Below are positions 9,047 to 60,051 of a stretch of 64,000 nt of DNA, in pieces (the stretch's first letter is position 1; each line of letters begins with the position of its first letter). This DNA comes from Escherichia coli. Its GTDB lineage: Bacteria > Pseudomonadota > Gammaproteobacteria > Enterobacterales > Enterobacteriaceae. The position numbers and the translations under genes are program-made. A model generated the notes under the pieces. It made no database searches. It was given only the letters and a program-made list of their open reading frames with translations, and was not told the DNA's origin. The DNA is taken from NCBI GenBank assembly GCA_020819635.1, contig GCA_020819635.1_4533.1, one strand, 5' to 3'.

Positions 9047-10039
9047 ATGCGCTATCTGGTAACAGGTGGTCTTGGTTTTATTGGGAGTGCCGTGGTGCGC
9101 TCTCTTTGTCAAGATCCCAATAACGAAGTTTTTGTCGTTGATAAGATGGGCTATGCAGCAGATATTGAGAATGTAGGCGATATCACTCACGTTAAACTAA
9201 GCATAACAGATTTGGCAAACGAAACCCAGGTCAAAAGTTTAGTAGTAGAGTGCAATCCCGATTTCATCATTCACTTAGCGGCAGAGAGTCATGTGGATAA
9301 TTCTATCAAGAATCCACGAGTTTTCATCGACTCCAATATTATTGGTACATACAATTTATTGGAAGCTGCAAGGCTCCTCCCAAAAAATAAACTTAAGATG
9401 TTCGTACATGTCTCCACAGACGAAGTGTACGGCGATATGGCAGACTCTGGCGTTCCCTTTACCGAAGAGACAGCTTATGCCCCTTCAAGCCCGTACAGTG
9501 CGTCTAAGGCAGCATCTGACCATCTTGTGAAAGCTTGGTACCGTACCTACGGTTTACCTGTTGTGATAACCAACTGCTCCAATAACTTTGGACCTTATCA
9601 ACATCCAGAAAAGCTGATCCCAAAAATCATCACAAGTATCTTGACGAATAAAGAGATTCCGGTGTATGGTAAAGGCGATCAGGTGCGAGACTGGCTTTTT
9701 GTTGAGGATCATGCGCGAGCTATTCTTCAAGTGGCAACAGGTGGAGAACCAGGTCAAACGTATAATGTTGGAACACGTAATCCCAAAACCAATATGGAGA
9801 TCATCTATATGGTTTGTGACTACATGGATGCTGTACATCCAGAAGCAGGAACCTACCCTTCTTCCAACTTGATAACTTTTGTTGAAGATCGTAAAGGACA
9901 TGACTTGCGTTATGAAATCAATCCTTCTAAAATAGAGTCTGAACTGGGTTGGAGTGCAAACTCTACATTTGAACAAGATCTCTACTCAACGATTGAATGG
10001 TACTTAAACAACCCTCAATGGTGGAGTAAGAAGATTTAA
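9047..10039 (+). CDS. rmlB: dTDP-glucose 4,6-dehydratase
   Basis: N-terminal Rossmann motif [10 protein letters not shown]; family-typical [24 protein letters not shown]. Confidence 0.9.
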
Positions 10040-10047
10040 GGAGGGTT

Positions 10048-10926
10048 ATGAAAGGTATTATTTTGGCGGGAGGAAGTGGAACCCGCCTTCATCCGGTAAC
10101 ACGCAGTGTGAGCAAGCAATTGCTCCCTGTGTATGACAAACCCATGATCTACTACCCCTTATCGGTATTGATGTTGGCTGACATTAAGGATATCTTAATC
10201 ATCACCACACCAGGCGATCAGGAAGACTTTGAGCATCTTCTTGGAGATGGGTCTATGTTTGGGATAAAACTCACTTACGCAATCCAATCCGAGCCACGAG
10301 GTCTTGCGGACGCTTTCATCATCGGTAAAGATTTTATCGGAGAAGACTCTGTTGCTCTTATTTTAGGTGACAACCTATTCTTCGGACAAAGCTTTGGTAA
10401 ACTACTGATTAACGCTAGTGAGATGGTAGATGTTTGGGGCGGAGCTTGTATCTTCGGGTGTTTGGTGAAAGATCCTGAACGATTCGGTGTGGTTGAATTT
10501 GGGAGTAATCGTCAAGTTATTTCTATTGAAGAGAAACCTGAAAATCCTAAATCAGATTATGCTGTCACAGGTTTGTATTTCTATGATAACTCTGTTATTC
10601 AACGTGCATTAGAAGTAACCCCTTCCGCGCGTGGAGAACTGGAGATCACCGATATCAATCGCAGCTACCTCGAAGACAGGAAGTTACAAGTAGAAGTTCT
10701 CGGACGAGGATTTACTTGGCTTGACACAGGAACACACGCCAGTCTGATGGAAGCTGGTCAATTCGTGCAGACTATTGAGAACTGTCAAGGATTGAAGATT
10801 GCGTGCCTGGAAGAAATTGCTTTCAAAAAAGGGTGGATTTCTTTAGAGACTTTGGTCTACCATGGAAACTCACTGAAGAAAACAGAGTACGGGCAATACC
10901 TACTCAAATTAGCGGAGGGAAAATGA
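10048..10926 (+). CDS. rmlA: glucose-1-phosphate thymidylyltransferase
   Basis: [18 protein letters not shown] nucleotidyltransferase signature. Confidence 0.9.
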
Positions 10927-11489
10927 AAGTAGAAAAAACAAAAATTGAAGGTGCGGTAATTATCAAACCAGACGTTTATAAAGATGACCGTGGTTTCTTT
11001 TTAGAAACATATAATGAACAAAAATACGAAGATATCATTGGTAGACAAACTTTCGTTCAAGATAACATGTCTAAATCAAACTTCGGTGTTTTGCGAGGAA
11101 TGCACTTTCAAACAAATAATCCGCAAGGTAAGCTTGTTCGTTGTGTAAGTGGGGAAGTATTGGATTTCGCTGTAGACCTACGTAAAGATAGTCCTACTTA
11201 CGGTGCTTGGGACGGTGTTGTTCTTCGTGCACGACACCATACACAGTTCTGGCTTCCACCTGGTTTGGCACATGGTTTTATAGTGTTGAGTATGGATGCT
11301 ATCTTCGAATACAAATGCACAACTCCATACGACCCTTCCAGCGAACAAAGTTTACGTTGGGATGATCCTGATATAGGGATTGATTGGGGCTTCGATATGA
11401 TTTTTGACGAAGATTTTAAACCTATCTTATCAACAAAAGATGCAATGGCTAAGTCTTTTCAACAGCTACGTAGCGAGGGTGTATGCTAA
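10923..11489 (+). CDS. rmlC: dTDP-4-dehydrorhamnose 3,5-epimerase
   Basis: ATGA overlap with rmlA; cupin-type RmlC sequence (GMHFQ...); ORF-table start at 10803 is upstream extension. Confidence 0.85.
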
Positions 11490-12325
11490 CATATCTGGTA
11501 TTGGGTGGTAATGGACAACTGGGACAAGCTTTACGTAAAGTGGCTCCTTCAAATGTGTCTTTAATTTATCCTAAAGAACGTGTAGATATTACAAATTTTG
11601 AAGCTGTGCGAAACGCTATTATTGAAGATTATGTAGATGGTGTTATTAATTGCGCTGCTTATACGGCTGTAGATAAAGCAGAACATGATTTTGCTACTGC
11701 TTTGGCTGTTAATGCCTATGGCCCTGCAAATATTGCGGCAGTGTGCAGCAAACTTAAAATTGATTTTGTGCATATTTCTACAGACTATATTTTTAATTAT
11801 TCTCATCCTATTTTTGAAGATACTACACCTAACCCGATAAACAATTATGGGTATACGAAAGAACTCGGTGAAAAAATGGTGCGAGGAGTTAACCCGAACG
11901 CATATATTATTCGAACAGCGTCTGTATATAGTGAATTTGGAAATAACTTTCTAAAAACTATGTTGTCTCGCTATAATGATGGACAACGTGATTTTACTAT
12001 CGTTGCAGATCAGTTCTCTTGTCCAACATATGCCCCAGATTTAGCAGAAGCTATTTTTGAAGTATTAAAAACAGGTTGGTCAAGATCTGTAAAGACTTAC
12101 CATTTTGCAGGAAGCCATCTTATTTCTTGGGCGGAGTTTGCGGAAAAGATCTTGACACAGATGCCAGAACCTGTTAAGATATCGGCGGTATCAGCTTCAA
12201 CCTATAATGCTCCAGCAGCACGTCCGGTGAAGTCACAACTAGTAACCAGTCACTATCTTACAAAATCAGATTTAAATAAAGGTATTGAACGGTCTTTAGC
12301 AGTATTACTTAATAAGGAGAGGTAA
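11483..12325 (+). CDS. rmlD: dTDP-4-dehydrorhamnose reductase
   Basis: N-terminal LVLGGNGQLG Rossmann motif; position after rmlC. Confidence 0.85.
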   Translation: MLTYLVLGGNGQLGQALRKVAPSNVSLIYPKERVDITNFEAVRNAIIEDYVDGVINCAAYTAVDKAEHDFATALAVNAYGPANIAAVCSKLKIDFVHISTDYIFNYSHPIFEDTTPNPINNYGYTKELGEKMVRGVNPNAYIIRTASVYSEFGNNFLKTMLSRYNDGQRDFTIVADQFSCPTYAPDLAEAIFEVLKTGWSRSVKTYHFAGSHLISWAEFAEKILTQMPEPVKISAVSASTYNAPAARPVKSQLVTSHYLTKSDLNKGIERSLAVLLNKER

Positions 12326-24056: not shown

Positions 24057-24542
24057 ATGTTTCAAGTAAATGTCAATGTGCATAATAGTTACTCTGATTG
24101 TGAAACGTGTGGCTATAATTCATCTAATGTTATTCGTATTAGTGGCGATTTAGGAGAAGCTTCTTTTGGAGAAGAAGCAAGTTGCTTTAGTGGTATGGAT
24201 GCAGAATGGAATGATATTGCACATTGGTTAGTGAGCAAACTAAAAGAAAAAGAGAAACCATTTCCTACTCTGCTTGATCGTTCTCTTGTGGAAGATGCAG
24301 GTAAAGCATATGCAGACTATGCGTATGCAGACGGGAAATATTTGGAAGATGATAAGGCTAACCATTTGCTTTATGTTTACTATGAAGCTGAATCTGCCTA
24401 CGATAATTATTACAGCATGTCTAACATCCTACGTCTGTTTGCAGAGTTTGATATTTATTTCGAAGTAGAATTTTCAGAAGATGATACTTACGAGTACAAT
24501 TCTTATGATCCATTTGAGGAGGAAGAATGCCAAGACGAGTGA
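24057..24542 (+). CDS. hypothetical acidic protein
   Basis: 161-aa ORF, D/E/Y-rich. Confidence 0.45.
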   Translation: MFQVNVNVHNSYSDCETCGYNSSNVIRISGDLGEASFGEEASCFSGMDAEWNDIAHWLVSKLKEKEKPFPTLLDRSLVEDAGKAYADYAYADGKYLEDDKANHLLYVYYEAESAYDNYYSMSNILRLFAEFDIYFEVEFSEDDTYEYNSYDPFEEEECQDE

Positions 24543-25342
24543 TTTTTGTAAGCGGTGCAGGTTTAAGTGCAGACAGTGGGATTCGAACATTTAGAACAGA
24601 CACAGATAGTGGTCGTGCTTTATGGGAAGAATATGATTTAGAAGAGGTCTGCGATATTGGAGCTTTCCAAGCAGGTTATCGTGTTAGAACATCTCCAGAT
24701 CTTCCAGTGGTCGGTGGTGTAGACGAGAACGGTATGGATTTGTATGCCAAAACACACGAATTTTATAACAAAAGACGTGTTGAGCTTAAAGATGTACAAC
24801 CTAATGCTGCACATATTCAAATAGCAAAGTGGTTTAAGGAATATCCTAACCAAATAGTAAACTTGACAACAAACGTTGATGATCTACTAGAGCGAGCAGG
24901 TGTAGACAGAGATTCTGTTATTCACGTACACGGATATCTTCCTGAAGTAGTTTACCGTATGCATCCTGGAGATTACAAAACACTGGTAGATATTGGTTAC
25001 AATAGTATAAACATAGATGATTATAACTGGGTGAAGCCTAATGTTGTATTTTTTGGTGAGGCTGCACCTTTGTATGCAGATATGGCTCACTTGTTCGATA
25101 CTTTGACCATGCAAGATTTGGTTGTAGTAGTAGGATGTTCAAACCAAGTTATCAATTTTAATTGGGAATTATTTCCTGCACTTAGTATGGGTACAAAAAT
25201 GGTTGTAGTTAACCCTGGAGTTAATTACGAAGAAACACTTCTCTATGAAGATCGTGGAGTTTTTGTTTACCGAGAAAAAGCTGCAACAGCCTTCAGCAAT
25301 GAAGGTTTCATTAAAATGGTCGAAGACCACTTAAACAAATAA
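24527..25342 (+). CDS. Sir2-family (sirtuin-like) NAD-dependent protein, lacking zinc ribbon
   Basis: GAGLSADSGIRTFR, TTNVDDLLERAG, HVHG, VVFFGE motifs match the Sir2/CobB catalytic core; no CxxC...CxxC zinc module. Confidence 0.75.
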   Translation: MPRRVIFVSGAGLSADSGIRTFRTDTDSGRALWEEYDLEEVCDIGAFQAGYRVRTSPDLPVVGGVDENGMDLYAKTHEFYNKRRVELKDVQPNAAHIQIAKWFKEYPNQIVNLTTNVDDLLERAGVDRDSVIHVHGYLPEVVYRMHPGDYKTLVDIGYNSINIDDYNWVKPNVVFFGEAAPLYADMAHLFDTLTMQDLVVVVGCSNQVINFNWELFPALSMGTKMVVVNPGVNYEETLLYEDRGVFVYREKAATAFSNEGFIKMVEDHLNK

Positions 25343-32172: not shown

Positions 32173-32844
32173 CTATTTAATGTTCAGTCTGGCACACAAA
32201 CGAGAAACAGTTTTAGCATCCCATTTACCACCACGTGCTGTTGCTATTTTCTTACTATTGAATTTTTCAGCAATAGTTTTGTAAGGTGTATTTAAATCTC
32301 TAAGGATCTCCAAGCGTTCACGGAATGTCTCTGCAAAAGCGTCTGCTTTAACAGAATTGTATTCCATTTTTCCTTTTCTACGTGCAGCGGCAGTTTTAGG
32401 ATTAGCACTGCCTAATAAAACACCTTTGCTTTTTGCTACAGCAAGACCCTTTTTAATACGATCAGCAATACCTCTAACTTCTTGTTCAGCCAGAACAGAC
32501 AGAAGCTGTATAACCATTTTATCTGCGTCTGGCATGATGGCTATCTTAACATCGATCATTTCTAGAAGAGTTGCTACAGAGGCGTTGTTACGACCCAAGC
32601 GGTCAACTTTAGCTACCAATAAAGTTGCTCCGGTAGCTTTACACATTTCAACCGCTTTAACCAGTTCCTTACGTTGCTTCCAATCGCCCTTGCCCGAATA
32701 GTATTCAGAAAATTGACCAATAACTTCCGCATCAGGCACAGAGTCTAAGAAGTAACGGATATCATTCTCTTGGCTCTCCATACCATATTGTGCCTCACCT
32801 TTTTTCTGTTTAGAAAGACGACTGTAAACAACAAACTTTTTCAT
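32173..32844 (-). CDS. small serine recombinase (resolvase/invertase family)
   Basis: catalytic VYSRLSKQ (Ser nucleophile), VDRLGRN, C-terminal HTH ATARGGKWDAKTVSRL; own TTGACA-17-TAAAGT promoter upstream. Confidence 0.75.
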   Translation of the reverse strand: MKKFVVYSRLSKQKKGEAQYGMESQENDIRYFLDSVPDAEVIGQFSEYYSGKGDWKQRKELVKAVEMCKATGATLLVAKVDRLGRNNASVATLLEMIDVKIAIMPDADKMVIQLLSVLAEQEVRGIADRIKKGLAVAKSKGVLLGSANPKTAAARRKGKMEYNSVKADAFAETFRERLEILRDLNTPYKTIAEKFNSKKIATARGGKWDAKTVSRLCARLNIK

Positions 32845-32914
32845 AACCACTCCTAAACCATTGCTGTATTCTCACTTTACAAAACGAATAAACACTTGTC
32901 AAGGTATTTATTAT

Positions 32915-55196: not shown

Positions 55197-55463
55197 ATGA
55201 CAAATACTACATTACACCTTATGCACTCATTGGGCTGGCAAGGCGGCACGGTGCACCAGGTAGCAAGCGCAACGGGCTTAAAGGTTGAAACCGTTCTCAA
55301 CCTGGGCGATCATAAGGTGGAAGAGATAGATCATTTTGATACGTTCGCAAATGGTTATCTATGGGCTTGCAGTGGCGGCGGGGAAAGCAAGATACCACCA
55401 GGGGCGCGGGGCGATATGTATTTTTGGTTAGGTGTCCTATCCTGGCAAGAAAACAAAAAATAA
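55197..55463 (+). CDS. hypothetical protein (isolated plus-strand ORF)
   Basis: 88-aa ORF with AAGGG RBS; GC-richer than surroundings; reality uncertain. Confidence 0.3.
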   Translation: MTNTTLHLMHSLGWQGGTVHQVASATGLKVETVLNLGDHKVEEIDHFDTFANGYLWACSGGGESKIPPGARGDMYFWLGVLSWQENKK

Positions 55464-55465
55464 TC

Positions 55466-55494
55466 TTGACAAGCCCAGGGATCGGGCTTATACT
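55466..55494 (+). promoter_or_regulatory. strong sigma70-like promoter
   Basis: TTGACA, 17-nt spacer (itself an AGCCC...GGGCT inverted repeat), TATACT. Confidence 0.5.
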
Positions 55495-55499
55495 GTTTT

Positions 55500-55700
55500 A
55501 CATACAGAAGAGGAAGCGCCACCCCACGGCGTAAAGGCGGGGCTAACATACCAGGGGGCACTGGTTGGAAGGTTGATCGCCGGTAGGCTGGGTGCTATAT
55601 ATTTGTAAAGAAATGTAAAGATAAAATAATCGCTTGCTTTCCTGGCTGGATCTGTTATTCTTATTACATGGCGAGGGGACACGGGAGCGCGAGACAAACA
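55500..55700 (+). ncRNA. candidate small non-coding RNA, GC-rich and structured
   Basis: directly downstream of a consensus promoter; no plausible ORF; locally GC-rich in an AT-rich genome; only Pro/Arg-rich antisense ORFs. Confidence 0.2.
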
Positions 55701-55722
55701 CCGCCCCTGCGCGTCATTCTCT

Positions 55723-55838
55723 AAATGAGAATGATTGTCATTTACCTTATTAAATAAGAATCAATCTCATTTATAAACTTAAATGCGAATCATTATCATT
55801 TGCATTTCCATATGAGAACTCTTCTCATTTTCACCTGC
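55723..55838. repeat. four tandem 29-bp repeats with palindromic core (operator or iteron-like)
   Basis: copies start at 55723, 55752, 55781 and 55810 (exact 29-bp period); core aAATGaGAATnaTtnTCATTT with inverted-repeat symmetry. Confidence 0.6.
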
Positions 55839-55851
55839 ATAAAAATTTTTG

Positions 55852-55910
55852 TAAACTTTAAATTTTGCTTTTGTACTTTCATTTTTGTAAAAGCAAAAAA
55901 ACTTTAAATA
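55852..55910. repeat. AT-rich direct repeat, copy A (about 58 bp)
   Basis: TAAACTTTAAATTTTGCTTTTGTACTTTCATTTTTGTAAA...ACTTTAAATA; about 85% identical to copy B. Confidence 0.5.
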
Positions 55911-55989
55911 CTGTGGGCGCGCAAAATTTTTAAAATTTTCCTTGACTTTTGAGTTTTGTTTTGTATCTAACATTTTAAGATAATTTTCC

Positions 55990-56047
55990 TAAACTTTAAA
56001 TTTTGGTTTTCAACTTTCACTTTTGTAAATTCTTAAAAAGTTTAAAT
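55990..56047. repeat. AT-rich direct repeat, copy B
   Basis: TAAACTTTAAATTTTGGTTTTCAACTTTCACTTTTGTAAA...GTTTAAATA, 138 bp downstream of copy A. Confidence 0.5.
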
Positions 56048-56177
56048 AATTTGAGGGATTTTTGAGATAAAAGATAGTGGGAATTTGATATAACCTTTAA
56101 TCTTATTGGTAAACCTTCAGGAACCCACTCAGATCGAATCCTAGTGATGCAAACTGAAAAAGACAAGGGTTTGTATA

Positions 56178-56216
56178 GGACAAAATAACAGGCTCTCTAC
56201 GGTGCTGTAGGAGCCT
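56178..56216 (-). terminator. intrinsic terminator of the minus-strand operon
   Basis: minus strand AGGCTCCTACAGCACCGTAGAGAGCCT hairpin followed by GTTATTTTGT. Confidence 0.5.
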
Positions 56217-56271: not shown

Positions 56272-56814
56272 TCACAAATATCGTCTTTGCGGTATTTTGT
56301 CTGGGAAAAGTATTTCGATCAGTTTATTATGATATTTGCCTAAAAGATTCTGCCCTTTCCAGGTAGCAGGGTTTAGCACCCCTGGTTCATACATTCCCAT
56401 TCCAATACCGTAAACCTTATCGTAAGGACTTGCTTCAACAAACGTTTTGTATTGGTAAAGGTGTAAATCTGCATACAAATCTGGATTCTGTACATATTTC
56501 AAGCATAAGCCTCGCATAACAATACGCTCACGGTTCTCTTCCCACATATCATTATTAAAACCAGATACCGCTCGACCCATACGTTTGTAGTATGCTTGTT
56601 TCCTCTCGTTGTCACGTATAGTTGAGTGATCAAGGATAGCTGCTGCAATCGCATGATCCTTGAACAGCAAAGCCTTACGCCACATCATATATTGCTCAAC
56701 ACAACAGAAAGTCTCATTGTAACCTGGTTCAGTTTCTGTAAAGGGTGCAATATACCAATTACTAAACACATCTTTATGTGAAAAGAAGAATACATATTCA
56801 TCAGTTATTCTCAT
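56272..56814 (-). CDS. NADAR-domain protein (YbiA-like)
   Basis: VFFFSHKDVFSNWY and VEQYMMWRKA match NADAR family hallmarks. Confidence 0.75.
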   Translation of the reverse strand: MRITDEYVFFFSHKDVFSNWYIAPFTETEPGYNETFCCVEQYMMWRKALLFKDHAIAAAILDHSTIRDNERKQAYYKRMGRAVSGFNNDMWEENRERIVMRGLCLKYVQNPDLYADLHLYQYKTFVEASPYDKVYGIGMGMYEPGVLNPATWKGQNLLGKYHNKLIEILFPDKIPQRRYL

Positions 56815-57026
56815 TTTTTCATGCCTTCTAAAACTTTAGCTTGCCCGTCTTGAAAAGCTTTCATCAGAACTATCTTAAGATTGACTTCCAAACGTTCTTC
56901 ATCCTCTCTATAACAATCCAACACTGCTTTAAGTTCATCATAGTGGTTCAGAATAGGTTTAAAGATTTCATGATCTGCTAAACGTGCCATAGTTTCTCCT
57001 TTGTTAGTCCATCCACCAGTAGCCAT
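56811..57026 (-). CDS. hypothetical protein
   Basis: 71-aa ORF. Confidence 0.4.
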   Translation of the reverse strand: MATGGWTNKGETMARLADHEIFKPILNHYDELKAVLDCYREDEERLEVNLKIVLMKAFQDGQAKVLEGMKK

Positions 57027-57369
57027 AAACTGCGTCTGCGTCGATGAGTTTGTGTTTGTTGTTCCGCATGTAGTCTAAGATAAGTAGACGTTTATTGTAT
57101 CTGGAGAGATTATGACCCTCTTTTCCGCCATAGTCAAAATATTTTGCAAGATCTTTACACTCAAACAAAATCAGTTCGGGAGTTTCTTCACACTGGTCTG
57201 TCTGGTACACTTGACGAATGATCATGTATACATCGTCGTCTTCCGCTAAATGCTCTACTGGTCCACATCCAGCAGGAACAAATTCATAGTCCCATCTGAT
57301 CAGATGTTTCTCTACTGCTTCAAAGAAGTCCATTCTTTCGTTGCGCATAATTTGAACGTCAACTAACAT
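57004..57369 (-). CDS. hypothetical protein
   Basis: 121-aa ORF. Confidence 0.45.
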   Translation of the reverse strand: MLVDVQIMRNERMDFFEAVEKHLIRWDYEFVPAGCGPVEHLAEDDDVYMIIRQVYQTDQCEETPELILFECKDLAKYFDYGGKEGHNLSRYNKRLLILDYMRNNKHKLIDADAVYGYWWMD

Positions 57370-58823
57370 GTTTCCTCCTCTCTCATTATTCCACCTGCTT
57401 GGTTGATAGCACTTAAGACGATAGCCAAATCCTCGCGCAGGAAGGTTTCACTATGACCATCTTTCATGTGCAAGCGTTCTACACAGCCAATAGACGGTAG
57501 AATCTGATCAGTCTTAGACTTTAGCTTACTCTCTAACGCCCTGCAAGCTTGGTAGGACGGCAGATCGAACAATGCTATACGGCGCATAGAGTAATTGTTG
57601 TTTGCATTCTGCCCTTTGATCCTGATATCACTGTCCTTTGCAATCCCCAACTTGTAAGCTCCCGTGTCTTCTCCGTACTCATCAAGAATAATATTGATGT
57701 AAAATTCTTGCATATTTCTGTTCTTACAGCCTGGACAACCTTTCCCATTGAGATAATCGGTAGGTGTGATCGTTTGCTCTCCATGCTCCCTACATAGATA
57801 TTTAAACTTGCTGTTATTGCTTACCTTATCAATGAATCCTATAAATTGATCCCCTCGTTCCTGGCAAGCTTTGGTCATACGGTAGGCCCATTGTTCAGGA
57901 GTGTAATGATAATATTTAGAACAACGGCAAGGAAGGCCACCCCTTTTCAAATGACTCATCTTCATCTCAAATTTATTATCGCATAAGCCTTCTTTACAAT
58001 AATCATCCTCTGCACATATAGGACATTCTACAATCCAGTAAACCTGACGACCTAATCTATCTACTCTATCGCTACGATAATATTTACGCTCTACATTATC
58101 AGGACAAGCTTTTATAAAATCTTCAACATGTTGTTTATCCTCCATTGTATTCCTTTGTTTCGTCATTTCTCTTTGACAACTGTAGCATCCAGTCCCTTGT
58201 TTAGCACTGTTTACAGTGGTAGTGCACCATTGACCATGAACCTTACACTCACAAATCAACTTAGTGCGGGAACCGTTCCACGGTTCCACATAGCCTCTAA
58301 CAATCCAGGGTTTTTCTTTATAAGCTTCTTCTACTTCTTCTTTATGTTTCTCCCATGCAATCGATGTTCTTTCTCTGTTTGCTTCTCCCATACACTTCCT
58401 GCATCCACTCCCGTTTTTCGCAGAAGATATAGAAGTAGACCTCCACTCCCCATGTAAAGCACAACAACAAACCAGTTTAGTATTCCATCCTTTCCATTCT
58501 CCGTGCCATCCTGTAACAGTCCAAAACTTACCTGCCTGATTGTAAGTGGTTTGCACTTCTTCTTTATATTGCTCCCAGGTTTTTGATTTGTTTATAGATA
58601 CTGCTTTACTTATAATCTCCCTACCGCATTCTGGACAACCCCTCCCTAGTTTAGCGGTATTTATGCTTGTTGTTTTCCATTCTCCATGCAGAGCACAGAT
58701 GCATCTAAGTTTAGTTTTATTGCCGTTCCACGGCTCAATATAATCTACAACAGTCCAAGACTTACCTTGATAAGCTTGTTTTATATCTGTTTTATATTGT
58801 TCCCAAGTGACTATTTTTGGCAC
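57363..58823 (-). CDS. Cys-rich protein with three tandem zinc-ribbon-like repeats and a possible GIY-YIG/T5orf172-like C-terminal region
   Basis: three ~60-aa repeats W..Y...W...W.G..TKL.C.C..HG.W..T......K.G.GC..C; C-terminal YKLGIAKDSDIRIKGQN; putative homing-endonuclease-like. Confidence 0.4.
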   Translation of the reverse strand: MPKIVTWEQYKTDIKQAYQGKSWTVVDYIEPWNGNKTKLRCICALHGEWKTTSINTAKLGRGCPECGREIISKAVSINKSKTWEQYKEEVQTTYNQAGKFWTVTGWHGEWKGWNTKLVCCCALHGEWRSTSISSAKNGSGCRKCMGEANRERTSIAWEKHKEEVEEAYKEKPWIVRGYVEPWNGSRTKLICECKVHGQWCTTTVNSAKQGTGCYSCQREMTKQRNTMEDKQHVEDFIKACPDNVERKYYRSDRVDRLGRQVYWIVECPICAEDDYCKEGLCDNKFEMKMSHLKRGGLPCRCSKYYHYTPEQWAYRMTKACQERGDQFIGFIDKVSNNSKFKYLCREHGEQTITPTDYLNGKGCPGCKNRNMQEFYINIILDEYGEDTGAYKLGIAKDSDIRIKGQNANNNYSMRRIALFDLPSYQACRALESKLKSKTDQILPSIGCVERLHMKDGHSETFLREDLAIVLSAINQAGGIMREEETC

Positions 58824-58911
58824 ACCTCCCCCTTTAGCTATTAGTGCGAGCCTACAACAAAAGAATAACTAAAATCCCTCCATAACAAATGCCCCTTGCG
58901 GGGCATCTTTA

Positions 58912-60051
58912 TTAGAACACGCTACCAAGTGTAGTGGAACGTTGTGTTACAGGCTCCAGCACCACTCGCAAAGTGTTTCCTGGTGTAGTGCTCATAACCA
59001 GAATCTTACCACCTTCAATCAGATCACAAGTTAGACCATCAGCCGTTGCACATAGATCAATATGTGGATCACCATCTTCATCCAGGATAACATAACTGTT
59101 GGTTTCCATTGCTTCCACTTCATCATCTTTCAAACTTTGTAGATAGATGTTCAGGGAACAAGCGCCCGACAAAAACTTAGTAGGGGTGAAGTCGTGCCAG
59201 TTATTGATCCAATTCACCTTCAAGGTTTTGCCATTAGCTACGATAGAAGCCACATTCCATTTAGCATCGTTCCCTAAAGAAATACCCATCATTTCAAGAC
59301 ATTCTTTAAAAGTCATTTTTGGATAGAAATTCAATTCTTCTACAATGCCTTGAATAACATCGAAAGACAACTCTGTGCTAACATCCCATAAACGTTGGAA
59401 GTTATCTACGTGCTTTTTATTTACCAAGTTCTTATCCAAGTAATCTAACATAGTTTCACTAGACAGTTTATCGTAATTGAAACTGTAGTAGATACGACTA
59501 GGACGGTTTACAAAATATTCCGAGATATAACCACTATTTTTAGTGAGGATGTAAAGTTTATTCCCACTTCCTGTTCCATCCAACAAGGTCAACAGTGCTT
59601 CCTGATCTTCTTTCTTAGCGTACACTTTATCAAATTCGTCAAATAAAACAACAGCACGATCTGTAATTTTACTCATAAATTCTAAGAAGCCAGCATCTGT
59701 GTAAGGCTGTGTAACCAAAATGGTTGGAATACCTAAACCTTCTGTGGACATTAGAGACATGCTAATTAGTTTAGCTAACATCGTCTTACCACTGCCTTTT
59801 GTCCCTGTCAGTAACACCCCAGTATTTTTACCTTCTTTACTACGACGAGCAAATGTTTTAATAACATGTGCGGCGCGATCTTTAGTTTCCCCATAAAGAG
59901 TGTTCGGAAGAGAGAAACTTTCACCACGCACTAAAGAGTAGTTACCGTGCGGATCGCAGTTGACAACCCAAACTCCAGCAGGAAGTTTATTAGCTTCAAC
60001 GCCATATTCCTTATTTACAACAGCTACATCTCCAAAAATAGTGTATTTCAT
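58912..60051 (-). CDS. AAA+/P-loop ATPase
   Basis: Walker A GTKGSGKT and Walker B VVLFDEFD. Confidence 0.6.
   Translation of the reverse strand: MKYTIFGDVAVVNKEYGVEANKLPAGVWVVNCDPHGNYSLVRGESFSLPNTLYGETKDRAAHVIKTFARRSKEGKNTGVLLTGTKGSGKTMLAKLISMSLMSTEGLGIPTILVTQPYTDAGFLEFMSKITDRAVVLFDEFDKVYAKKEDQEALLTLLDGTGSGNKLYILTKNSGYISEYFVNRPSRIYYSFNYDKLSSETMLDYLDKNLVNKKHVDNFQRLWDVSTELSFDVIQGIVEELNFYPKMTFKECLEMMGISLGNDAKWNVASIVANGKTLKVNWINNWHDFTPTKFLSGACSLNIYLQSLKDDEVEAMETNSYVILDEDGDPHIDLCATADGLTCDLIEGGKILVMSTTPGNTLRVVLEPVTQRSTTLGSVF

Follow-up and report, generated by a model that had tools for sequence, protein, structure and literature searches.

The gene at 56272..56814 of a phage genome segment probably encodes an orphan, antitoxin-like NADAR ADP-ribosylglycohydrolase, the counterpart of AdfN^Bas60, that would protect the phage against DarTG1; we place the probability of this reading, made from sequence and predicted structure, at about 0.8. 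The gene lies in a 64-kb stretch of DNA (hereafter, the window) from a phAPEC8-like Phapecoctavirus, an E. coli phage of the subfamily Stephanstirmvirinae. The observations that carry the assignment are the fold and active-site residues of the protein, the homology and gene order it shares with a validated protein, its orphan status, and purifying selection on the gene. A first-pass annotation had put the gene forward as a counter-defence candidate, a proposal supported by the role demonstrated for the syntenic AdfN^Bas60 of a sister genus (PMC11825919). The counter-defence idea is thus correct but already known, AdfN having been published in 2024-2025 and its role established for the same phage subfamily. 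Given that a 57%-identical gene in the same position in the sister genus was shown to counter DarTG1 in 2025, the finding itself is not new, and the experiments suggested in the first-pass annotation have already been done on AdfN^Bas60. The present analysis extends AdfN counter-defence to Phapecoctavirus, a genus of large phAPEC8-like phages isolated on APEC, STEC, and ESBL-producing E. coli, and predicts that these phages resist hosts carrying DarTG1.

The open reading frame was recovered at exactly the coordinates first claimed for it. It runs from an ATG start to a TGA stop, encodes 180 aa, and lies on the minus strand, the first-pass annotation having given none. The features considered here, in order of position, are:

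24527..25342, plus strand: SIR2-family ORF (Pfam PF02146, E = 1.9e-22)
55197-55463, plus strand: convergent ORF downstream of the NADAR gene, 88 aa (phrog_19316, E = 2e-59)
56178..56215, minus strand: intrinsic-terminator-like hairpin, GGCUCCUAC...GUAGAGAGCC then UGUUAUUUUG, about 60 nt past the NADAR stop codon
56272..56814, minus strand: NADAR gene, probable adfN-like orphan antitoxin, 180 aa (from PF08719, AF2, and homology)
56811..57026, minus strand: orf71, a small ORF of 71 aa (59 aa from the Met annotated in other records)
57004..57369, minus strand: orf121 (phrog_24465)
57363..58823, minus strand: CapR-homology zinc-ribbon repeat protein, 486 aa (Pfam PF21817, five repeats, E = 1.4e-28)
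58889..58906, minus strand: hairpin, AUGCCCCGCAAGGGGCAU then UUGUUAU, separating the stop codon of the ATPase from the CapR-repeat gene
58912..60051, minus strand: P-loop/AAA-type ATPase, 379 aa (Pfam PF00004, E = 8.7e-07; phrog_2376 'ATPase', E = 3.9e-111)

Membership of the 180-aa protein in the NADAR family is unambiguous and far beyond chance. The family had been proposed from two motifs, both of which the sequence contains (FFFSHKDVFSNWY, residues 9-21; EQYMMWRKA, residues 40-48), and was borne out by Pfam PF08719 (NADAR/DUF1768; E = 3.4e-35, 122 bits where the gathering score is 35.1, the alignment spanning positions 3-154 of the 163-position profile); TIGR02464 also scored above its cutoff (114.9 versus 73.7 bits). 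Over the 5.5 kb surrounding the gene, identity is 100% with Escherichia phage vB_EcoM_3A1_SA_NWU and at least 99% with many Phapecoctavirus genomes, and NADAR copies with at least 80% identity occur in 71 phage records (tblastn). The closest cellular homologues are stand-alone bacterial NADARs from Burkholderia, Kofleriaceae, and others (40-47% identity). Database records label the gene variously as 'GTP cyclohydrolase II', 'YbiA-like N-glycosidase', 'riboflavin N-glycosidase', and 'DNA methyltransferase'; assignment to NADAR corrects the first, third, and fourth of these, which are misleading.

The AF2 model of the protein (pLDDT 95.3, pTM 0.89) has the YbiA-like fold, an alpha-helical core with small flanking beta-sheets. 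Foldseek against the PDB matched the P. nicotianae NADAR in complex with ADP-ribose (PnNADAR, 8BAU; TM 0.79) and E. coli YbiA (2B3W; TM 0.67) and, at E <= 0.001, no structure other than these two NADARs; DarG1 structures were not retrieved. A profile search of the PDB likewise returned PnNADAR (6e-35) and YbiA (3e-16), with DarG1 chains absent at E up to 1, and phmmer against the PDB at E up to 0.01 found PnNADAR and not E. coli YbiA. Alignment to 8BAU revealed conservation of seven of the eight residues that contact ADP-ribose or take part in catalysis (PMC11543638): E40, K47, R81, W91, R95, E127, and D132 correspond to PnNADAR E43, K50, R79, W89, R93, E125, and D130, placing E127 at the position of the catalytic Glu. 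The eighth, contact residue W133 of PnNADAR, is replaced by Y135; this position is Trp in 42 and Tyr in 15 of 57 homologues, and the same Tyr is found in AdfN^Bas60. S18, E40, K47, W91, E127, and D132 are invariant across all 57. Matched by motif spacing, E40 and K47 correspond to E36 and K43 of T4 AdfN within a shared, conserved E-x6-K motif; mutation of these T4 residues abolishes counter-defence. The C-terminal helix is intact in the model (H157-169); among T4-type AdfN proteins, that of RB69 lacks both an equivalent helix and function.

AdfN^Bas60 provides the closest point of comparison. Phages Bas60-62 of the BASEL collection are phi92-like and now classified as Justusliebigvirus (Stephanstirmvirinae), the sister genus of Phapecoctavirus. 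From GenBank MZ501100.1, we identified the AdfN^Bas60 gene of Escherichia phage PaulScherrer/Bas60 as bas60_0111 (QXV83846.1), the product of which is 57% identical to the window protein over 172 aa (E = 9e-68), a level that does not guarantee the same in vivo specificity. In uninfected cells, AdfN^Bas60 neutralises DarT1; it also lets RB69, T5, and Bas25 form plaques again on hosts with DarTG1, with no help on DarTG2 hosts (Johannesman, Carlson & LeRoux, Nat Commun 2025; PMC11825919). In the part of that article drawn on here, the evidence comes from ectopic expression only and no deletion in the native phage is reported; hydrolysis of guanine-ADP-ribose by AdfN^Bas60 is deduced from in vivo neutralisation of DarT1. 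The two phages belong to the same subfamily and share the gene order ATPase, CapR-repeat, NADAR. In both, the NADAR gene is an orphan that ends a transcription unit and faces a convergent 88-aa gene downstream, and the two proteins match exactly in the motifs EQYMMWRKA and FVEASPYD. Differences comprise 43% of residues, a seven-residue insertion in the Bas60 protein after residue 27, and two additional small ORFs (121 and 71 aa) between the CapR-repeat and NADAR genes of the window.

The biochemistry on which the counter-defence proposal drew, reversal of DNA-base ADP-ribosylation by NADARs, is right: NADARs remove the guanine adducts made by DarT1 (PMC11543638), and every subfamily tested hydrolyses guanine-ADP-ribose in vitro (PMC11125620; PMC12945103). 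The proposed target, DarT-like toxins, holds for DarTG1, which modifies guanine, and not for DarT-like toxins in general, as thymidine ADP-ribosylation by DarT2 is not reversed by NADARs. In a DarTG1-carrying E. coli, DarT1 would ADP-ribosylate the guanine N2 of replicating, single-stranded phage DNA and thereby block phage replication. The phage NADAR would bind the ADP-ribose via K47, R81, W91, R95, and D132, with E40 positioning the distal ribose, and E127 would hydrolyse the N-glycosidic bond between ribose and guanine, restoring unmodified phage DNA so that replication could go on. We infer that the window protein is enzymatically active, is expressed early, and acts during infection.

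Activity in vitro and protection in vivo can come apart within the family: T4 AdfN and E. coli YbiA both hydrolyse guanine-ADP-ribose in vitro and do not neutralise DarT1 in uninfected cells (YbiA: PMC11125620). Like the window protein, AdfN^T4 (T4 gp30.3) is a phage-encoded orphan NADAR, and the two share the conserved Glu and Lys motif; AdfN^T4 removes guanine-ADP-ribose, and T-even phages both require it and need nothing further to resist DarTG1. It belongs, however, to another NADAR clade, carries His at the catalytic acidic position where the window protein has Glu (E127), has no more than the minimal core domain, does not remove cytidine-ADP-ribose (PMC12945103), and fails to neutralise DarT1 outside T-even infection, whereas the closest tested relative of the window protein acts without other phage factors. 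The window protein lacks the catalytic His of T4-type NADARs, and its relative AdfN^Bas60 is placed outside the T4-superfamily cluster in the literature. DarG1 (BC4488-type, as in E. coli C7 and G. lovleyi) shares the fold and, by analogy, may share with the window protein the hydrolysis of DarT1-made guanine N2-ADP-ribose. In contrast to the window gene, which has no adjacent toxin gene and a catalytic Glu, DarG1 adjoins DarT1 and uses a catalytic Asp (D171 in E. coli C7). At its N-terminus, DarG1 also bears a beta1-beta2-alpha1 extension, which makes up a basic groove for binding DNA (PMC11543638); the NADAR core of the window protein begins at about residue 7, so this extension is absent. 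Asp, N-terminal extension, and adjacent darT1, the features of the DarG1/BC4488 type, are thus all missing. PnNADAR, the closest solved structure, has the same catalytic Glu, as do the stand-alone bacterial NADARs, but contains extra N-terminal and internal insertions (PMC11543638), and it and the stand-alone bacterial NADARs are cellular proteins rather than phage counter-defence genes.

The TIGR02464 match raises another reading of the gene, as a metabolic N-glycosidase of the YbiA type, breaking down reactive intermediates of the riboflavin pathway. The model is named 'riboflavin biosynthesis intermediates N-glycosidase', the catalytic Glu is the YbiA-subfamily signature in the de Souza-Aravind scheme, and several GenBank records give the gene a riboflavin-type label ('GTP cyclohydrolase II', 'YbiA-like N-glycosidase'). 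YbiA itself resembles the window protein in fold, catalytic Glu, and TIGR02464 match. However, TIGR02464 gives the validated anti-DarT1 protein AdfN^Bas60 an equally high score (109.4 bits) and hence does not discriminate; we rejected it as evidence of a riboflavin role. The window NADAR stands alone, with no fusion to RibA or RibD, and no riboflavin genes occur among the 46 window ORFs scanned. YbiA is far more distant in sequence, being missed by the phmmer search that found PnNADAR, and AdfN^Bas60 groups with bacterial NADARs distinct from both the YbiA-like and the DarG1-like ones, outside the T4-superfamily cluster (PMC11825919). YbiA is also the product of a housekeeping gene whose operon LexA controls, and it confers no protection from DarT1 in vivo (PMC11125620). 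We consider the metabolic role very unlikely.

A wider substrate range has more in its favor. The window NADAR could be a broader nucleic-acid de-ADP-ribosylase whose substrates would include, besides guanine-ADP-ribose on DNA, cytidine-ADP-ribose and ADP-ribose linked to RNA bases; its main benefit would then lie in defence against host ADP-ribosyltransferases other than DarT1 (pierisin/ScARP-like, YarT-like, or RNA-targeting). This explanation overlaps with the anti-DarTG1 role and does not exclude it. A catalytic Glu such as E127 is found in the 'NADAR' and 'YbiA' families, which in vitro clear DNA and RNA of guanine-ADP-ribose and cytidine-ADP-ribose alike, whereas DarG1 (Asp) and T4 AdfN (His) remove guanine-ADP-ribose only (PMC12945103); this residue makes a broader range possible for the window protein. 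NADARs reverse ADP-ribosylation of RNA guanosine too (PMC11833690), and the PDB profile search, with PnNADAR far ahead of YbiA and DarG1 missing, points in the same direction. On the other hand, the E167D variant of SCO5665 lost all activity instead of switching specificity (PMC12945103), so the catalytic Glu does not necessarily set specificity. The cited NADAR/AdfN literature describes no cytidine-specific or ScARP-like anti-phage systems in E. coli, and the sole in vivo phenotype known for the closest tested relative, AdfN^Bas60, concerns DarTG1 (PMC11825919). We hold the broader range to be possible but unlikely.

Signatures of selection bear on both the DarTG1 role and the range of substrates. 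The NADAR gene is under purifying selection, with a dN/dS of ~0.13 (0.04-0.15 among Phapecoctavirus versions). Within residues 34-90, dS is saturated and nucleotide divergence reaches 32%, versus 3% in the flanks, which identifies this segment as a recombination tract exchanged between Phapecoctavirus lineages. Positive selection in the central segment was rejected, as dN is not detectably above dS. Since residues 34-90 have been swapped between lineages, NADAR alleles could differ in specificity. A still bolder proposal, that Stephanstirmvirinae NADARs, given their catalytic Glu, serve as broad-spectrum erasers of base-linked ADP-ribose (guanine, cytidine, and RNA-linked) against undescribed E. 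coli defences that ADP-ribosylate DNA or RNA, strikes us as improbable; if it were true, swapping of the central helices (residues 34-90) would be a mark of selection acting on the range of substrates or targets. Beyond the 2023-2026 NADAR/AdfN literature, allele mosaicism and the Glu-based prediction of cytidine-ADP-ribose removal are the only possible novelties here.

The window NADAR gene is an orphan, without a toxin partner in the 64-kb window. Among the 46 ORFs scanned, which included its five neighbours and 40 further ORFs of at least 130 aa, there were no members of the ART/DarT, macrodomain, or Nudix families. Partners of the SLOG, Macro, and Nudix types were similarly not found in the window, which counts against degradation of small soluble immune signals or toxins derived from ADP-ribose, such as the cADPR variants of TIR/Thoeris. 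Such a function is a general proposal for phage NADARs from a survey by the Aravind laboratory. Direct experiments since that survey have NADARs acting on base-linked ADP-ribose in nucleic acids (PMC11125620, PMC12945103, PMC11825919, PMC11833690), and no activity on soluble ADP-ribose-derived signals is reported in the cited NADAR/AdfN literature; there is accordingly little chance that soluble signals are the target. The window does encode a SIR2-family protein, and sirtuin-plus-hydrolase pairs are known from phages, so the NADAR might instead undo a modification that an NAD-consuming enzyme of the phage itself introduces, as the partner of that enzyme in self-immunity or regulation. The two genes, however, are not paired, being on opposite strands with 31 kb between them, and known sirtuin partners are macrodomains. 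Sirtuin products (O-acyl-ADP-ribose and protein-ADP-ribose) also differ from the N-glycosidic base adducts that NADARs cleave, and AdfN^Bas60 works alone under ectopic expression (PMC11825919). A partnership with the sirtuin appears exceedingly improbable.

Turning to the neighborhood of the anti-DarTG1 candidate, the first-pass annotation had placed the NADAR gene in one operon with a co-oriented Cys-rich repeat protein and an AAA+ ATPase. The orientation is as described: the Cys-rich protein (CapR) and the ATPase are both on the minus strand, the ATPase lying upstream. The operon stands in part. From the CapR-repeat gene through orf121 and orf71 to the NADAR gene, each gene overlaps or adjoins the next, the stop codon of orf71 overlapping the NADAR start codon (ATGA); the four form a unit that begins with the CapR-repeat gene and is closed by the hairpin at 56178..56215, a strong terminator (-23.3 kcal/mol, z = -5.2; none of 200 shuffles folds as well). 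The ATPase gene, by contrast, is set apart by the stable hairpin with a U-rich tail at 58889..58906 (-16.6 kcal/mol, z = -3.0), which is a terminator in the Schickermooser annotation and possibly a partial one. Sigma-70-like hits (20) were not in excess of the shuffled expectation (17.4 ± 4.8), so no promoter was assigned.

The ATPase and CapR-repeat proteins are 64% and 35% identical to bas60_0109 and bas60_0110, respectively. A functional ATPase-CapR-NADAR module was nonetheless rejected. The order is confined to Phapecoctavirus and Justusliebigvirus. Mydovirus Ro1 has a NADAR gene (43% identical), and within the 8.5 kb that surround it tblastn found no homologue of the ATPase, CapR-repeat protein, orf121, or orf71, and neither AAA nor CapR Pfam families were present among the genes called beside the NADARs of metagenomic contigs L008 and L009. 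PADLOC assigned no credible defence or anti-defence family to the ATPase, CapR-repeat protein, orf121, or orf71. With these neighbours conserved within Stephanstirmvirinae only, nothing points to the ATPase or CapR-repeat protein working with the NADAR. A conserved orf121-orf71-NADAR cassette was also considered: contig L008 has a 53%-identical NADAR whose gene is likewise preceded by two ORFs of exactly 121 and 71 aa. BLASTP found them not homologous to orf121 and orf71 of the window, making the length match a coincidence, and the cassette was rejected.

orf71 belongs to phrog_22330 (E = 5e-45), a PHROG of unknown function, corresponds to Schickermooser gp171, and has no counterpart in Bas60. 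orf121, which has neither a Pfam nor a PADLOC match, is nearly confined to Phapecoctavirus and 99-100% conserved within the genus; tblastn retrieved 81 phage records, most at 99% identity or more, along with a few Klebsiella phages at ~30%. In the ~700-bp gap 3' of the NADAR gene, a structured RNA or tRNA was rejected, with no Rfam match at gathering thresholds in the whole window and zero tRNAs by ARAGORN. The minus-strand 'frameshifted' ORFs of the Schickermooser annotation at ~55352-55695 were also rejected, having no PHROG support, unlike the plus-strand 88-aa ORF. The CapR-repeat protein falls in phrog_681, labeled 'endonuclease' in PHROGs; its C-terminal domain gives a sub-threshold match only to T5orf172 (E = 0.077), and its length varies among relatives (329, 332, 394, 402, and 467 aa).

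The reading frame that the first-pass annotation had assigned to the NADAR family was recovered at exactly the same coordinates, and both hallmark motifs named there are present, FFFSHKDVFSNWY at residues 9–21 and EQYMMWRKA at residues 40–48.

56272..56814, minus strand: NADAR gene, an ATG-to-TGA ORF of 180 aa

The protein matches Pfam NADAR (PF08719) over almost the full profile (E 3.4e-35; 122 bits, gathering score 35.1), exceeds the cutoff of NCBIfam TIGR02464, and also matches phrog_1017, a family without known function. Its phage origin, also claimed in the first pass, is borne out by the surrounding 5.5 kb, which shares 100% identity with Escherichia phage vB_EcoM_3A1_SA_NWU and 99% or more with many phAPEC8-like phages (Phapecoctavirus, Stephanstirmvirinae). 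GenBank labels for the gene conflict and often mislead (records OR352953, OM386667, and PQ529420 among others): they include "GTP cyclohydrolase II," "N-glycosidase," "DNA methyltransferase" (phage Eryne), "hypothetical protein" and, in just a few records, "NADAR family protein." Labels such as "GTP cyclohydrolase II" or "YbiA-like N-glycosidase" would make the protein a riboflavin N-glycosidase. They derive from TIGR02464, but that model does not discriminate: the validated counter-defence protein AdfN^Bas60 scores just as well (109 bits). Moreover, no riboflavin gene was found among the 46 window ORFs scanned, and the window NADAR resembles E. coli YbiA only weakly: phmmer missed YbiA, and a profile search gave it 3e-16 versus 6e-35 for PnNADAR.

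T4 gp30.3, named AdfN, is an antitoxin-like NADAR encoded as an orphan, and it strips DarT1-made ADP-ribose off phage DNA (Johannesman, Carlson and LeRoux, bioRxiv 2024; Nat Commun 2025; PMC11257639, PMC11825919). Two unrelated phage NADARs, AdfN^Bas32 and AdfN^Bas60, neutralised DarT1 in uninfected cells and allowed RB69, T5, and Bas25 to form plaques again when the host carried DarTG1, with no rescue on DarTG2 hosts (PMC11257639, PMC11825919). Phages Bas60–62 are placed in "Vequintavirinae" in the AdfN paper and called phi92-like in the BASEL paper (PMC8594841); GenBank currently classifies PaulScherrer (Bas60) in Justusliebigvirus, Stephanstirmvirinae, the sister genus to that of the window phage. 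AdfN^Bas60, taken from MZ501100.1 (82014-82565, bas60_0111), aligns to the window protein with 57% identity across 172 aa (E 9e-68). The two proteins have the motifs EQYMMWRKA and FVEASPYD in common, both carry Tyr at position 135, and the upstream ATPase (64% identical) and CapR-repeat protein (35% identical) share order and orientation. This identity and conserved gene order place the window gene in the position of a validated anti-DarTG1 factor, and it is most likely the AdfN^Bas60 orthologue. We put the probability that it would act by an anti-DarTG1 mechanism at roughly 80%. Counter-defence, as first proposed, thus gains support from a validated syntenic relative, with the target narrowed from DarT-like toxins generally to DarTG1 specifically. 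NADAR biochemistry (2023), phage AdfN (2024–2025), and the sister-genus protein at this position are already published; we found no mention of a Phapecoctavirus NADAR in the literature searched. A role for NADARs in acting on soluble ADP-ribose-derived immune signals (PMC9503650) had no supporting experiment in the literature consulted. NADARs also occur in candidate bacterial defence systems besides phage counter-defence, as indicated by the PADLOC candidate-defence model PDC-M42C, matched by both the window NADAR and AdfN^Bas60 at ~1e-35, and by NCBIfam "DS32_2 NADAR family anti-phage protein," which both match weakly, far under its cutoff.

An AlphaFold2 model of the window protein, built from an alignment of 57 homologues, was very confident (pLDDT 95.3, pTM 0.89). 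Foldseek returned only two significant PDB matches to it: 8BAU, the P. nicotianae (Pn) NADAR–ADP-ribose complex (TM 0.79, E 1.9e-9), and 2B3W, E. coli YbiA (TM 0.67). Residues were mapped by HMMER alignment to 8BAU, with roles from Schuller et al. 2023 (PMC11543638). Pn E43, K50, R79, W89, R93, E125, and D130 correspond to E40, K47, R81, W91, R95, E127, and D132, and the eighth ADP-ribose contact, Pn W133, to Y135. Across the 57 sequences, S18, E40, K47, W91, E127, and D132 are invariant, while position 135 is W in 42 and Y in 15. Matched by motif spacing, E40 and K47 are the counterparts of E36 and K43 in T4 AdfN, each pair forming an E-x6-K motif; mutation of the T4 residues abolishes counter-defence (Johannesman et al., PMC11257639, PMC11825919). 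Glu at position 127 is informative, being replaced by Asp in DarT1-associated antitoxins and by His in T4-type phage NADARs. The most credible extension of the anti-DarTG1 reading is a substrate range broader than guanine-ADP-ribose: in vitro, members of the Glu-type NADAR and YbiA families remove guanine- and cytidine-ADP-ribose, on DNA and RNA, whereas the antitoxin DarG1 and T4 AdfN remove the guanine adduct only (PMC12945103; PMC11833690).

The gene had also been assigned to one operon with a Cys-rich protein and an AAA+ ATPase. The features bearing on this assignment are as follows.

57363-58823, minus strand: CapR-repeat gene, an ORF with five CapR-homology zinc-ribbon repeats
57004-57369: orf121
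56811-57026: orf71
55197-55463, plus strand: convergent 88-aa ORF (phrog_19316, E 2e-59), beyond the NADAR terminator hairpin
55471-55489: terminator-like hairpin after the convergent 88-aa gene

The CapR-repeat gene, orf121, orf71, and the NADAR gene each overlap or abut the next, with the NADAR start codon overlapping the orf71 stop codon as ATGA, which makes it plausible that the CapR-repeat protein shares an operon with the NADAR. Some 60 nt past the NADAR stop, a GC-rich hairpin precedes a U-run (-23.3 kcal/mol, z = -5.2). For the ATPase, membership is uncertain because a stable hairpin (weaker U-tail, z = -3.0), annotated as a terminator in another record, separates its stop codon from the CapR-repeat gene. 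GC content is raised and GC skew is positive around the 88-aa ORF, where some GenBank records carry "frameshifted" minus-strand ORFs without PHROG support. Between the NADAR terminator and this convergent gene, 55700-56170 is gene-free and AT-rich (24% GC). Its repeats comprise a direct pair of 72 nt each, at 55844-55915 and 55982-56053 with 82% identity, and an inverted pair of 23 nt at 55722-55744 and 55751-55773. The corresponding position in the phage tuntematon record is annotated as a repeat_region, and Rfam gave no match to the stretch, which could possibly represent tandem promoters or an origin-like element.

The ATPase and CapR-repeat neighbours are probably irrelevant to the NADAR. 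Ectopically expressed AdfN^Bas60 is active alone (PMC11825919), and the ATPase–CapR–NADAR arrangement is limited to Stephanstirmvirinae. In Mydovirus Ro1 (NADAR 43% identical), tblastn of the 8.5 kb around the NADAR found no homologues of the ATPase, CapR-repeat protein, orf121, or orf71. The called NADAR-adjacent genes of two metagenomic contigs (NADAR 49–53% identical) included no AAA or CapR Pfam family. An apparent orf121–orf71–NADAR cassette in metagenomic contig L008, with ORFs of 121 and 71 aa upstream, was rejected as a coincidence of length lacking homology to the window ORFs. CapR-repeat proteins of close relatives span 329 to 486 aa, so repeat number probably varies between closely related phages. 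For the C-terminus the only match, to T5orf172 (GIY-YIG-like), falls below threshold (E 0.077); PHROGs labels the protein "endonuclease," and no PDB relative was found. Given the length variation and weak T5orf172 match, a nuclease-like, possibly selfish gene is a better fit than a NADAR cofactor.

Pfam scans took in 46 ORFs, namely the NADAR ORF, its five neighbours, and 40 others of at least 130 aa. Among these 46 there was no ART/DarT, macrodomain, or Nudix family, and no toxin partner for the NADAR was found in the window. Values of dN/dS between 0.04 and 0.15 among four Phapecoctavirus versions show that the NADAR gene evolves under purifying selection. Compared with tuntematon, codons 1–33 and 91–180 differ at 3% of nucleotides with no amino-acid changes, and codons 34–90 (56545-56715) at 32%, where dS is saturated and 16 amino acids are changed; the ATPase protein is identical and orf121 99% identical. 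By this pattern, codons 34–90 are a recombination tract, an allele swap in the predicted helices around residues 54–90, rather than a site of demonstrable positive selection. Catalytic residues are kept in both alleles. Phage nepoznato gives the same picture, with 32% nucleotide divergence, 16 amino-acid differences, and dS saturation in these codons against 3% and none elsewhere in the gene.

Three further loci in the window were annotated.

24527-25342, plus strand: SIR2-family protein (PF02146, E 1.9e-22)
9047-12325, plus strand: complete dTDP-rhamnose-type sugar pathway (RmlB-like dehydratase, RmlA nucleotidyltransferase, RmlC epimerase, RmlD reductase)
32173-32850, minus strand: serine recombinase/resolvase N-terminal domain protein (PF00239, E 5e-18)

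The SIR2-family protein is a second NAD-utilising enzyme in this phage genome; a partnership with the NADAR is unlikely because the genes lie 31 kb apart and sirtuin products differ from the adducts that NADARs cleave. A 161-aa ORF upstream of and overlapping the SIR2 gene (24057-24542) had no family match. The Rml genes lie within a few kb of ribonucleotide reductase, ThyX-like, and NT5C-like genes, and the BASEL paper mentions putative dTDP glycosylation machinery in phi92-like relatives (PMC8594841). The serine recombinase stands in a myovirus genome that is otherwise of virulent type.
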